From: a virus
Length of the DNA stretch: 64,000 bases
Reading direction: 5' to 3' (one strand)
IMG/VR virus record: IMGVR_UViG_3300032282_004772
Below the pieces are notes generated by a model. That model was not told the origin of the DNA. It was given only the letters and a program-made list of their open reading frames with translations, and searched no databases. A program made the translations under genes and the position numbers. Of this stretch, positions 21,524-34,335 are shown piece by piece (within the stretch, counting starts at the first letter, position 1; the number at the start of each line of letters is the position of its first letter).

Positions 21524-22327
21524 TTATTTGAAGATATCAAAATACTCTCTCCAACTACATTTGATTAAATTAAACAACTCTGGTTGTTTAACATAACATA
21601 TGTCAAATATTTTTTCATCACTACCGATATACCTATTACTTATTGATTCGTCTATTGTCTCAACAACCAAATTAAGTAATCCGTCAATTAAATGTGATGG
21701 TAATAAGAAAGCGGTTCCTTGTATATTTCTGATTTGTGATAAAGAATGAAACTGTCTATCATTAACACCAAAATGTTTATTATGACTAAAAAACGTAATT
21801 TTATTTAAATCTAATTGTGATATCTTTTCCATATTAGGCCATTTAGCCAAAGCGTAATTTTTAACATCTTCTCGTAATCCGCCAGCGTCCGCCCAAATAA
21901 CCATATCGTTATTAAAATATTTTTTTTCTATAGTATCTTTTAAAAAGAAAACTTTATTAAACATTATAATATTATAGAGTGGTTGACACATTTCAGGGAC
22001 ATCATGAAAACTTACTTTACTTTTAAAATCAGCAGCTCCCATTAATTCACATAATGAATCATTATACTTTTTATACATATCTAATTCATTCAAAGGAACA
22101 TCAACTATTATTGTCTTTGAGAAATCAGGGTCAAACTCTTTTCGATGGTTTTTAATGTCATTTATAAATTTTGTTTCGGTATAAACCACAATGTTTGCGT
22201 CTAAAGATAATGTATTTCTCATCCACCAAAGATATGTGTGATATGACATTCTAAAATTAGACCAATTCTCTCTTCCTATATCATAGAGAGCCATTACAAT
22301 TACAGGATTATTTACAGCCATTCCCAA
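21524..22327 (-). CDS. HtrL/YibB (WlaTC)-like glycosyltransferase
   Basis: ALYDIGR, Y..IMFNK..F, W.DAG, DE motifs. Confidence 0.65.
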   Translation of the reverse strand: MGMAVNNPVIVMALYDIGRENWSNFRMSYHTYLWWMRNTLSLDANIVVYTETKFINDIKNHRKEFDPDFSKTIIVDVPLNELDMYKKYNDSLCELMGAADFKSKVSFHDVPEMCQPLYNIIMFNKVFFLKDTIEKKYFNNDMVIWADAGGLREDVKNYALAKWPNMEKISQLDLNKITFFSHNKHFGVNDRQFHSLSQIRNIQGTAFLLPSHLIDGLLNLVVETIDESISNRYIGSDEKIFDICYVKQPELFNLIKCSWREYFDIFK

Positions 22328-23070
22328 GTTATTAATTGATTTTTATGTTTAATGTTTGCAATTTTTTGATTGAAATAATTTGAAGTATTATCAGGATTAA
22401 ATATTGTATTCATTTTTAAATTACGACTTGCCAAATAACTTGGAACAAACCCTTCTCCATATCCTGAAAATCCATTTTTAGTAATGTTTACTAACTCTTG
22501 CATTGCTTTATTAGAATACCTAACAATTGCAAAAAAAGAACCAAAATAATCTTTTATTTCAGGGGATAATTCGTCACCATGACCAGGAAATCTTTGGAAC
22601 CAAAGACCTTTTGAGTGCATCCTATGGTCAGCTTTAGGTATTTCAGGATATCCTTCCACATTTGAATTTTTAAATAAAAAATAACTAAGAAAATCAGAAT
22701 CGTCATTTTGAAATCCATTTAAAAATTCGTCCCAATTATCACAAGAAACGTCATCATCAAAAAACCAATAATATTCATAATTTGGGTTAGCAATATAAAA
22801 GTTAATCATTCTAAGATACGCATAAAACCAAATAATATTTCTATTACCTGCGTGATTCCAATAGTGACCCCGACTAACATCTTTTTTAAAATTAAAGTTA
22901 TTTCTTATATCGTTTTCAGTATATAAGAAAGCATTATAATTTATTGGTTTATTTTTAGAGTTATCTACAATGTAAAAAACATCTTCTTTATTTTTAAAAT
23001 AAGTCCACCAACCTATATAAGAAGTATAGGTTTCAGGAGTAAAACAAATTCCGTAACAATTTTTATACAT
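22312..23070 (-). CDS. Putative GT-A glycosyltransferase
   Basis: YEYYWFFDDDV DxD motif; sits within GT operon. Confidence 0.55.
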   Translation of the reverse strand: MYKNCYGICFTPETYTSYIGWWTYFKNKEDVFYIVDNSKNKPINYNAFLYTENDIRNNFNFKKDVSRGHYWNHAGNRNIIWFYAYLRMINFYIANPNYEYYWFFDDDVSCDNWDEFLNGFQNDDSDFLSYFLFKNSNVEGYPEIPKADHRMHSKGLWFQRFPGHGDELSPEIKDYFGSFFAIVRYSNKAMQELVNITKNGFSGYGEGFVPSYLASRNLKMNTIFNPDNTSNYFNQKIANIKHKNQLITWEWL

Positions 23071-31074: not shown

Positions 31075-34000
31075 TTAAAAATTATTTTCTACGGCTAAAC
31101 AAACCTCACCATTTTCTCTAATAAGTCTAGACATATTGTCAAACGAAATAAACGCATGACCCTGTAATCCCCAGCTTAACCCCCAACTATTTTTTATTCT
31201 AAATAATTTAGTTTTTAAATCCACTCCATTTATTACGTATGCATGTCCACCAGCATATCTACCCGATACTGTTATAATACCCTTGCTATTTGGATAAAAC
31301 ATTCCGTAATACCAATTTGTACCTACAACAACGGGTCCTACATTTAAAACTGTGTTCGCCAATGTATTAACATCATATGCCCAATAATATGACGCGATTT
31401 TATTTATATTTTTTAAATATTTTGCACCCGCTCTTACTGATGTTCCAGCATAATTTTCTCCAGGCCATTCATCAATTTTTTGAGCTTCTTTATATATTAT
31501 TACAGGAGAAACAACTGGATGAATACCGTTATGAGTTATAGGTCCATCCTCAATCCAATGAGCCCAAGCATATCCAACACACATTGGTGTACTTCCTTGA
31601 TTTCCGTTCCAAATATTATCTTGCCAATATCTTGAAGTAACTATTGGTGTGGATACGTTAAACTTATTTGTTATTAAATAATTTTTATCTCTCGTATCAA
31701 CGGAAAACTGTCTACCTAAAAGGTTAGATAGTGAAGATGGAGTTTCGGCAATTAATATTGTTAATATATAAAATTCGCCATATTCAAATAAACCTTGTCC
31801 GTTATTAAAGTCAAAGTCAGACGAGTTTAAAGTACAATATTGATATGGGATAATTTGAGAACTATCAATTGGATTGTTTAATCTATAATATCCCGTACTA
31901 CCAGTATTAGTGATACCACTTAAAGTAAACACTGAAGTTGAATCTGCAAATTGTAGTATTGTCGATAATTGATTTCCATCCAAATCAATATCACTGAAAG
32001 TAAATCCTGAAATTCCGTTAGGTGTAAATGAACTACCAATAGAATCCGAATATCCATTACCTGAGAACGATAAACCATTTTTCAAATACCTAAATTGGTA
32101 TGTTGTATAAGTTAACGCCTCATAAGTAATGTCGCAACTTGGTATTTCTGTTGGAGTAGGGGTTGGTAGTGGAGTTGCGGTAGGTACAGGAGTATCACAA
32201 TTAGGACAATCGTAACTAAATAAATCAAAAGTATCTTTTAATATTTGATAATTGTGTTTGATTACATCCGCACCTAATGGAATTGTGTACATTCTAAATT
32301 GAGATATTCCTCCGTCAAATGTTCCTGCAAAATTTTGTTCAATTTGTATGTTTGTTGTTAAAGCCGAAAGAGATGTTCCACTTAAAATATTATTTGGAAA
32401 TAATTCAGGGTCTTGTTGGTAGGTATTACCTGTCAATGTTGTAGGACATTCAATAAAGGTTAAATTATTGTGTAACCCCTGACTACCTCCACCCCAAGAA
32501 ACGTTAAAAGGAACTCCAACTTGTTTTTCCTTATCAGTACTTAATGCTCTTGGAATTATTTCTTCAACATTTTCTACTTTGTAGAAAATTCTACCGTTTA
32601 TATAAATTTTAAGTGTGCCTTTTCTATAATCTTTATCCCTTAACCATTTTTCATTTAAATTAATTAACTCTATTTGAGTTGCAGTAGAACACCCGTGAGA
32701 AATTGGAGGAGTTATCAACTCAACAGAATTGTTAGCCAAAGAATCCAAATAAACTAATTCAGTTATATCACCTAAACCACCTCTATAGTATAAATCACAT
32801 GTATCAAACCAAGTATATCGTTCCCAAACAATATCAATTAAAAACCAATGTTCTAATTCAAGAAACCCAGGATTTTCGGTTTCACAAGGATATATTGGAG
32901 GGCTACAGTATTCATCTATAGTATATCCTGTTTGATATGTGATTCCTGTTGTTTCACAACTACCCGTAGTTACACAATCACCCGTGAATCTTAAAATTCT
33001 AATACCAATTTGAGGATTACCAGGTTCACCGCAAAGTTTTAATGATATCACATTTGACATTGAATCAAAAAGAGGGTCAGATTCACAAGTGTTTTCTATT
33101 GAGGTTGTCTCTGTTGAATCACATGTGTCACAAGTATCGCAAGTCGCAGTGTTACAAGTATTACATGAAGCAACAACCGGAGTTGGGGTTGGGGTTGGTA
33201 CAGGTGTTGCAGTTGGTGTAGGAGTTGTTAAAGACTCGACAATTCCTATGTCGCAGTTTGGCGCTTTTGGAATACAAGAGTGAATTTGACATTCCCACCC
33301 ACAAGTTGCAACTTCTTGACATTCACAAGTACAACAAGTTGATGTGTCAGCAGTAACCGATTTACTTCCTCCACATACATTACATGCGTAATTAATATGA
33401 CTATCATGAATATCATTAACCGACCTTGGAGGGTACGCGTATATACATCTTGAATTTGTGACTCCTGAATTACAACATGCACATGTTTCTAAACAAGTTA
33501 ACCCTGATGTAACTCTTGTATATCCCGTATCTCCTGTCGGTGACCCGTCAGCGTGATGATAAAACTTATTTTCTGCTCGTGTCCCAAAATAAAAAAACAT
33601 ATCCTTATTATTCGGATATAATTCGTTTAAAGTTATTTTTCCAGGAGGGGGTGTATATTCATCAACAAGTCTTGGTTTTAATAGTAATTCTACAGACCAA
33701 CCTTTATTAACTCTACTTGGGAATATTTCATAATCATATCCAAATAATTTATAAAATCCTTGGTAGAATCCACCGTATAATTCATGGTACACACCAACTT
33801 TAGGGTCTAATTTAGATACTACTTCATATGCAATATCATTTGGTAATCCTGAAAATCTTATATTTGGACTTTGGGTAAACCCTGTTACTTGATGAAGTTT
33901 TAAACGTCTATCAAAATCAAGTCTATTAAATTTTTGAGAATCGGGTAATAACCCATTGGTTACGGTTATTGTTTGGGCGGTCATTTCAGTAACCAATCCA

Positions 34001-34335
34001 TTATCAATTCCTGTTAGACCTATGTCACAAATAGTTTCTGATGAAAAACAAGTTAAATCTTTGTTCTCTGGGTTATAATAATTTAATGAAACTAAGTTAT
34101 TGTCAAAGTTATAATCACCATAATTAAGAACAAAAAGTTCACTACTACCAGAATTATTTAAGTCAAAACTAAATGGTAAAACATTACCATCGTTAATTCC
34201 TATAATGTATGGAGAAAAAATAACATCTTGATTGTAATCCCTCTCATCTGAAGCCAAACAAAAATCTTGGATTTCAGACCTATTAAGTAGGTACAATTTT
34301 TTAAAATTATATTGATTTATATTTTGGTACGACAT
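31075..34335 (-). CDS. Large Cys-rich putative virion protein (LamG-like core) with C-terminal papain-like C1 peptidase
   Basis: LKIYINGR and [10 protein letters not shown] LamG-like motifs; NQG...MCVG, GGHAY, KNSWG catalytic motifs in the last ~200 aa. Confidence 0.75.

Follow-up and report, generated by a model that had tools for sequence, protein, structure and literature searches.

Candidate virion-protein O-glycosylation genes in a clade of T4-like jumbo phages: a conserved GT60 head enzyme and an exchangeable cassette

A 64,000-nt stretch of viral DNA, IMG/VR record IMGVR_UViG_3300032282_004772 (the window, by which we mean this whole stretch), carries a minus-strand operon at 21524-25705 whose first gene encodes a putative polypeptide N-acetylhexosamine (HexNAc) transferase of family GT60. 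On balance, we lean toward a role for this operon in phage-encoded, cytoplasmic O-glycosylation of virion proteins, with a conserved initiator, swappable extenders and Thr-Pro (TP) tracts as the sites of attachment. Glycosylation of phage proteins of any kind, at these tracts or elsewhere, we consider likely. Virion glycosylation is already known in mycobacteriophages and has been suggested for the cultured phage XacN1, and our literature search found no paper on GT60 in phages or joining GT60 to TP tracts in phages. New here are the anatomy of an initiator with a swappable cassette, evidence from a late-type motif, a test of association between GT60 and TP tracts, and a trio of genes common to XacN1.

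By family profile and predicted fold, the head enzyme is a genuine GT60 member closest in structure to the mucin-initiating polypeptide N-acetylgalactosamine (GalNAc) transferases, or ppGalNAc-transferases. The 418-aa product of 24449-25705 (minus strand) matches PF11397 (GlcNAc/GT60) with an E value of 3.6e-68 and 231 bits against a cut-off of 21, over profile positions 95-349 and an N-terminal stretch, and matches phrog_24687 at 1.9e-163. When its AlphaFold model (predicted local distance difference test, pLDDT, 96; predicted template modeling score 0.90) is compared with the PDB, the top 29 entries are all GT27 ppGalNAc-transferases (Z 19.0-22.4), and GT-A enzymes outside GT27 reach Z 17.6 at most. 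About 275 residues align with GalNAc-T2, model residues 1-330 lying on GalNAc-T2 134-440, the whole catalytic domain. Fold comparison alone worked, since PDB sequence searches with the protein by itself and as a 43-sequence profile gave no usable match. Beyond the catalytic GT-A domain (residues 1-330), the model has an extra conserved beta-rich C-terminal domain of ~90 aa (329-417), which most structural alignment rows leave uncovered. Across 43 GT60 homologues, down to 35% identity, D94-S-H96, G205-E-E207...R213 and H231 are conserved to invariant, with D94, H96, E206, E207, R213 and H231 among the invariant residues of the alignment; the D-x-H motif and the downstream His may be the counterparts of the GalNAc-T2 metal ligands. 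The protein has no hydrophobic anchor and is predicted to be soluble and cytoplasmic. The original prediction, made from the DNA letters and open reading frames (ORFs), had named a GT60/Gnt1-like enzyme at the head of the operon, and both the profile match and the fold bear this out. As a separate observation, some GT60 homologues are giants of 1,600-2,500 aa with three to four GT60-like stretches each (P0122, P0123, P0124, P0131, P0134).

Judged by its conservation, GT60 is a core gene of the clade to which the window belongs. Over 80 related contigs its identity is 71-83%, as against 70-85% for the family B DNA polymerase (PolB), so that the two are conserved alike. When relatives were picked via the conserved N-terminal domain of the product of 31075-34335, and not via GT60, four of the five near-complete genomes (at least 90%) held exactly one GT60 gene. 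The fifth, G083 (96% complete), was considered as a GT60-free relative and set aside as uninformative: its PolB lies at bases 1156-3867 and its assembly breaks inside the cassette. GT60 homologues number more than 7,000 in metagenomes, with identities of at least 73% among the best-scored, and 378 IMG/VR contigs carry one.

The genes behind GT60 are much more diverse. In the window, five minus-strand ORFs (24449-25705, 23875-24447, 23063-23872, 22312-23070 and 21524-22327) abut or overlap by 1-16 nt in operon-like fashion, just as had been described. The description of all five as glycosyltransferases fares less well, being firm for GT60 and, for the other four, backed by matches to HtrL or DUF3431 or by weak leads. 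Searching each operon gene against protein families gave matches for GT60, HtrL_YibB and DUF3431 and no family match for 22312-23070. The second gene, 23875-24447, encodes a 190-aa DUF3431 protein (PF11913, E 1.3e-13) and is common to only L001, L003, L018 and L019 among the related contigs. The 269-aa product of 23063-23872 is weakly glycosyltransferase-like (phrog_1579 glycosyltransferase, 1.5e-4), with further leads to HtrL (0.013, below the cut-off) and, in the Atlas, to Nucleotid_trans. The 252-aa product of 22312-23070 has only language-model look-alikes from the Atlas, in phage and giant-virus clusters, mostly Nucleocytoviricota, one of them named 'glycosyltransferase family protein'. 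The last gene, 21524-22327, encodes a 267-aa HtrL_YibB-family protein (E 4e-26) and occupies the slot that a 555-800-aa HtrL-like protein takes at the close of the cassette in 67 related loci. To our knowledge, neither HtrL_YibB nor DUF3431 has a proven function. The window operon thus reads, from its family matches, as one firm glycosyltransferase followed by four plausible ones.

We delimited the cassette by GT60 on one side and, on the PolB side, by a conserved minus-strand gene for a 126-aa protein (21099-21479), a boundary found by comparing related loci, and compared 75 loci. Cassettes range from 1.7 to 9.8 kb and contain 1-10 co-oriented genes; their 313 proteins fall into 70 clusters and their gene orders into 35 architectures. 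Turnover is rapid: architecture is the same in 49% of the pairs whose GT60 proteins are 90-98% identical, and the window's own set of cassette genes recurs in four other contigs only. The commonest clusters have Pfam matches to GT2, GT7C, GT10 (fucosyltransferase-like), GT25, GT32, GT34 and HtrL, as well as to CmcI-type and FkbM methyltransferases and a HAD-nucleotidyltransferase fusion. Among representatives of the 20 commonest clusters we found no flippase, polymerase, exporter or initiating phosphoglycosyl transferase, and a marginal hydrophobic stretch occurs in only 6/313 cassette proteins. As far as family assignments go, the pattern of the clade is one of a conserved GT60 initiator gene joined to a rapidly swapped cassette of predicted sugar enzymes. 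In some relatives, the 126-aa domain itself heads proteins of 350-530 aa with TP tracts of their own (L009 17040-18104, L012 17208-18803).

Candidate acceptors for such enzymes are encoded upstream on the same strand. The 566-aa modular product of 29372-31072 holds 11 TP tracts and the 1086-aa product of 31075-34335 holds two, as had been noted, and the (TP)3-coding pattern occurs eight times in the window, always on the coding strand, as against none in 100 shuffles. The larger protein (phrog_16701, 8e-52) has conserved domains at 1-350 and 400-750 with TP linkers between them and a variable C-terminal papain-like peptidase; the smaller matches phrog_19691, a 'virion structural protein' family, weakly (8e-7). 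TP tracts also occur in the tail sheath, a certain virion protein of 1112 aa (6757-10095, minus strand) with a 19-residue tract at residues 286-304, and once each in a 159-aa protein, where the tract is short (28199-28678, minus strand), and in a 538-aa protein (54935-56551, plus strand). The operon had been placed directly downstream of the TP genes; it is co-oriented with them and downstream, with four co-oriented genes (25782-29342) between. An N-terminal module of ~65 aa is common to the proteins of 26052-28133 (693 aa, minus strand), 28199-28678 and 29372-31072, each 41-47% identical to one another's counterpart. The same module forms a free-standing 91-aa ORF (72511-72786) in G001, a complete IMG/VR genome of 321,139 bp with direct terminal repeats that we used as the whole-genome reference. 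To judge by its recurrence in front of different sequences, the module has the look of a shared docking domain to which exchangeable cargo is joined. Separately, the window sheath is about twice the usual length, its recognizable sheath domains being confined to residues 829-1100.

GT60 is statistically linked to TP-tract proteins in at least three phage lineages. We sampled searchable viral contigs of at least 20 kb by a (TP)6-coding pattern alone (n = 44), with (AP)6 contigs as controls (n = 33), and found PF11397 in 10/44 and 0/33, respectively (P = 0.002, Fisher's exact test); a strict count without two weak matches gives 8/44 (P = 0.008). The 10 positives span at least three GT60 lineages, with 67-72%, 60% and 35-42% identity to the window copy, and in six of them the tract lies within ~5 kb of a strong GT60 match, by coordinates read by eye. 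Two entries need a remark: the GT60-like matches of G015 and G017 are weak, and G017 was rejected as a (TP)6 positive, its pattern lying on the non-coding strand with no TP tract. Of 52 related loci whose upstream flank is 6 kb or longer, 48 have a TP-tract ORF upstream of GT60, often as the immediate neighbor; these genomes are collinear and therefore do not represent 48 independent events. In G001, tracts occur in 10 of 389 ORFs overall and in two of the four just upstream of GT60 (P = 0.0035). The co-occurrence that had been put forward for checking, of GT60 with TP-bearing proteins across related genomes, is supported by the pattern-chosen contigs and by the related loci.

A promoter-like word also connects GT60 with structural genes. 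The motif TATTTATA (mRNA sense; TATAAATA on the plus strand) lies at 25742-25749, 44 nt before the GT60 start. Its total count in the window is not above chance (14 vs. 18.8 expected), but the copies are not randomly placed. Sense-oriented copies stand 10-65 nt (mostly 11-47) upstream of start codons for 10/14 in the window and 52/81 in G001, and the reverse-orientation word takes the same upstream position at only three and 15 ORFs, respectively. Examples in the window are at 4210, 5751, 25742, 28148, 34365, 50871, 56555 and 63890. The motif precedes GT60 (-44), the 693-aa gene (-22), the tail tube gene, the G001 homologue of the portal gene and many large ORFs, which agrees with the earlier remark that GT60 and structural genes have it in common, and in G001 the TP-tract gene that immediately precedes GT60 has it too. 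We did not find it before PolB, helicase or ThyA in the window and G001. The late promoter word of T4 is TATAAATA, and TATTTATA, one base pattern off it, is probably the late-type promoter of the clade, if position and orientation are a guide. Because GT60 and structural genes have the motif in common, the cassette would be placed with virion assembly in time.

Cultured phages with GT60 make up a small set in which much of this arrangement recurs. We found GT60 in only four cultured phages, all jumbo phages of Xanthomonas or Stenotrophomonas, at 43-48% identity. In XacN1 and Xoo-sp13 the gene (47-48% identity) heads a co-oriented cassette with a carbamoyltransferase and proteins of 286, 246 and 546 aa; in XacN1 this cassette runs from ORF334 (GT60) to ORF330. 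The 546-aa protein at the cassette end shows a full-length identity of 41% with the HtrL-like protein of the window clade, and the 286-aa protein is ~28% identical to cassette cluster 1. TPTPTPTP hits number five in XacN1 and eight in Xoo-sp13 vs. none in the control, and one XacN1 tract lies inside the 3313-aa ORF325, which adjoins baseplate wedge genes. These phages therefore resemble the window clade in GT60, the cluster-1 protein, the 546-aa HtrL-like protein and TP tracts in giant virion-type proteins, and they differ from it, in the case of XacN1, in the cassette carbamoyltransferase, a GC content of 50% vs. 30% and the host. The PolB of XacN1 was not among the matches of the window PolB at 1e-30. 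At least two bands of purified XacN1 virions are Schiff-positive, and the authors proposed phage glycosyltransferases as the makers (PMC5852040). That the module is old enough to be common to the Xanthomonas jumbo phages is a suggestion that we make only tentatively.

Among known systems, the GT60 enzymes of protists (those of the Golgi in Dictyostelium and T. cruzi, and cytoplasmic Gnt1 acting on hydroxyproline (Hyp) of Skp1) belong to the same PF11397 and have a GT-A fold beside that of GT27. The conserved D-x-H motif and downstream His of the phage enzyme may correspond to the metal-binding residues of the family, and the phage enzyme, like cytoplasmic Gnt1, has no membrane anchor; Thr/Pro-rich candidate acceptors are encoded alongside it. 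Unlike the protist enzymes, it has a viral, bacterial-type context, the extra ~90-residue C-terminal beta domain and no adjacent prolyl hydroxylase. The animal GT27 ppGalNAc-transferases are the best structural match, and both they and the phage enzyme combine a catalytic domain with a C-terminal beta-rich domain. In contrast to them, the phage enzyme is cytoplasmic by prediction and not of the Golgi, and at 12-15% identity it is not GT27 by sequence; its C-terminal domain is unaligned with the GT27 ricin lectin domain in most rows. GT60 has been described as the protist sister family of GT27, lacking the ricin domain and starting mucin-type chains with N-acetylglucosamine (GlcNAc) on Ser/Thr-rich domains (PMC8724618). 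Giant viruses (chloroviruses and mimiviruses) likewise encode their own soluble glycosyltransferases for structural proteins and differ in their eukaryotic hosts and in having N-linked or fibril glycans. We know of no GT60-led cassette described in them. Mycobacteriophage virion glycosylation reportedly involves other glycosyltransferase families and C-terminal acceptor tails, not TP stalks. The resemblance is that mycobacteriophages, too, decorate capsid and tail proteins with their own glycosyltransferases (Freeman et al. 2023, as cited in PMC12619734). What the window clade has in common with mucin-type systems, at the level of genes, is an initiating polypeptide HexNAc-transferase (the putative GT60) together with Thr-Pro-rich candidate acceptors; the membrane steps of an O-antigen- or capsule-type locus were not seen among the tested cassette representatives.

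Several results weigh against O-glycosylation of virion proteins at TP tracts. TP tracts are ordinary interdomain linkers. They occur without GT60, and adjacency to it is common, not universal: of six viral genomes with (TP)6 and a completeness of at least 90%, five have no GT60; in several complete relatives GT60 and the conserved TP gene are 19-36 kb apart; and the tract of the window sheath is absent from the G001 sheath. These same points favor a variant in which particle proteins are glycosylated on capsid, sheath or fiber domains and the tracts are flexible linkers, as does the finding that capsid and tail-tube subunits of mycobacteriophages bear glycans at their C-termini (as cited in PMC12619734). 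We nevertheless regard this variant as unlikely, given the enrichment of GT60 in (TP)6 contigs, the closeness of GT60 and tracts in three or more lineages and the Thr/Pro-rich, mucin-like nature of known GT60/GT27 acceptors (PMC8724618). Also to be set against glycosylation at the tracts is that the (TP)6 and (AP)6 samples are unmatched for habitat and clade. The proteins of 29372-31072 and 31075-34335 may be virion proteins, on the thin grounds of a weak family match, a shared module and gene position. AlphaFold gave no usable fold for the conserved N-terminal domain of the latter (20 sequences, pLDDT 28.7), and a profile of that domain had no match in the PDB. TATTTATA also stands upstream of non-structural genes (the superoxide dismutase fusion, 34386-35252). 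Finally, the Schiff-positive bands of XacN1 were not assigned to particular proteins (PMC5852040), and XacN1 also has a second glycosyltransferase. The virion O-glycosylation first proposed for the window is partly supported, by the enzyme, its solubility, the motif and the TP association; the evidence goes against an exclusive link between GT60 and TP tracts.

Other acceptors have also to be weighed. The cassette could remodel a host envelope glycan (lipopolysaccharide, LPS, or lipooligosaccharide core, or capsule) from the cytoplasmic face, for superinfection exclusion or against sticking to debris. HtrL_YibB and GT25 are known from LPS core loci, and peripheral LPS core transferases also lack membrane helices, both of which count against a virion acceptor; in addition, a hypervariable glycosyltransferase island looks like O-antigen loci, and a survey of jumbo phages proposed such a role for phage glycosyltransferase clusters (PMC7824862). 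We find envelope remodeling less probable than a virion acceptor outside the tracts, for family and fold alike mark the conserved anchor enzyme as polypeptide-type, the tested cassette representatives include no flippase, polymerase, phosphoglycosyl transferase or exporter, and the motif is common to late structural genes. Moreover, the same trio is found in phages of Xanthomonas and of the different host of a 30%-GC clade, and its occurrence across very different hosts argues for a phage-borne acceptor. To Skp1-like modification, in which GT60 would target a host protein for takeover or Hyp made by a phage 2-oxoglutarate oxygenase, we give little credence. PF11397 was defined on Gnt1, the protist cytoplasmic enzyme that modifies Hyp on a single protein, and G001 has three PF13640 oxygenases; these, however, are remote from GT60 (at 29, 153 and 162 kb), XacN1 and Xoo-sp13 have no PF13640 gene, and a hypervariable extension island fits poorly with a single regulatory target. 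Least probable of all, in our judgment, is that the cassette hypermodifies phage DNA, a hydroxylated base bearing the glycans in the manner of T4, RB69 or YerA41. The cassette does adjoin PolB, multi-sugar DNA modification by phage glycosyltransferases is on record (PMC13326640), G001, XacN1 and Xoo-sp13 have one ThyA-family gene each, and the HtrL-like protein of L057 has a weak TAGT match (0.0068, below the cut-off). Yet XacN1 DNA was cut by BssHII, NaeI and SpeI and read by PacBio (PMC5852040), and its being cuttable argues against bulk DNA glycosylation. The ThyA matches (262-288 bits) are like those of ordinary thymidylate synthases, no Tet/JBP match appeared in a search whose control was also silent, and fold and motif point the other way, the one being nearest to peptide-acting enzymes and the other late-type.

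Under the virion-protein reading, soluble GT60 would, late in infection, transfer a first HexNAc from a host uridine diphosphate (UDP) sugar to hydroxyls of phage proteins. This sugar would most likely be alpha-GlcNAc, going by family, and the likeliest sites would be Thr residues in the TP linker or stalk tracts of the fiber-like proteins encoded just upstream, with further sites in other TP-bearing virion proteins, for example the sheath insertion. The co-transcribed downstream genes (here the HtrL-like, the DUF3431 and two unnamed ones) would then extend and decorate the first sugar; in relatives, the presumed extenders include GT2, GT7, GT10, GT25, GT32 and GT34 enzymes and methyltransferases. 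We infer the protein acceptor, the TP tracts as sites, the identity of the sugar and the place of the neighboring TP proteins in the virion from these lines of evidence taken together. Since the extension enzymes differ between relatives, different glycans might be borne on the same kind of stalk. One possibility, which we hold as doubtful, is that abundant T4-like jumbo phages of lakes form 'glyco-serotypes', in which a fixed GT60 primes the stalks and a recombining island varies the surface glycan. If true, these would be a viral counterpart of O-antigen diversity and could tune adsorption, protect the particle against proteases or grazers, or let it escape recognition by the host. The usual picture of a phage particle is one of bare protein; should the virion reading hold, particle surface, host range, antigenicity and stability would all hinge on a sugar layer that is hidden and evolves fast, and eukaryote-like O-glycan initiation would operate in the bacterial cytoplasm. 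GT60 with a TP tag could then serve as a simple glycoengineering tool in bacteria. XacN1 is cultured, which makes the idea testable now.

The window is part of an uncultured, freshwater T4-like jumbo phage of ~320 kb, from a clade common in metagenomes. Window GC is ~30%, and the window encodes a T4-type baseplate protein, the sheath, the tail tube (phrog_4542), an SNF2 helicase, PhoH and dUTPase; a PHROGs search of the large neighboring genes gave a name to the tail tube alone. The window is collinear with G001 bases 46-102 kb, and G001 has genes for a capsid protein of the gp23 type and a portal of the gp20 type. A megablast search of 18-38 kb returned zero DNA-level matches among cultured phages. 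The nearest cultured PolB, from Salinibacter phages, is only 23% identical, and the phage therefore has no close cultured relative. Assignment to the 'Moraphage' lineage (PMC12619734) was considered and dropped: moraphages all have heat-shock genes, and HSP70 is missing from G001. The minus strand between 34335 and 18245 forms a single co-oriented block, from the TP genes through PolB (18245-21007) at its end. In the search output, the PolB of G083 (1156-3867), G084 (200466-203435) and G087 (207814-210627) is in two pieces or has an in-frame TAA. A split gene, inserted sequence or a misassembly could explain this.

Upstream of GT60, the minus-strand stretch at 25782-29342 includes an 81-aa ORF and the gene for a 211-aa protein (28707-29342) whose C-terminal domain recurs in small freshwater phages. 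In L348, which represents a second lineage, this domain is encoded immediately upstream of GT60, and in phage phiAC-1 it stands at the end of the gene adjoining the capsid gene. A second glycan gene cluster, on the plus strand at 39467-50860, is a possible supplier or extender by its family matches. Its genes include a double GT2 fusion, a DegT aminotransferase fragment, WbqC, a GH130/GH32-like propeller and a GNAT-methyltransferase fusion, along with GT2, a CmcI-type O-methyltransferase, a sulfotransferase, a GT1-like gene and another GT2, with PhoH interleaved. Nothing in the complete relative G001 corresponds to its part at 40980-46552, which would therefore make up a second variable island.

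Three further genes deserve mention. At 61948-62397 (minus strand) lies an FKBP-type peptidyl-prolyl isomerase (PF00254, 4e-24), in a genome whose structural proteins are rich in proline linkers. The 559-aa product of 15178-16857 (plus strand) fuses a complete Fe/Mn superoxide dismutase, with both Pfam domains in its first 226 residues, to ~330 unassigned residues, and has TATTTATA upstream. The same motif precedes 56578-61209 (plus strand), whose 1543-aa product, with nine DUF5122 beta-propeller repeats (4e-120) and a LamG-like domain, is likely a large fiber or adhesin.

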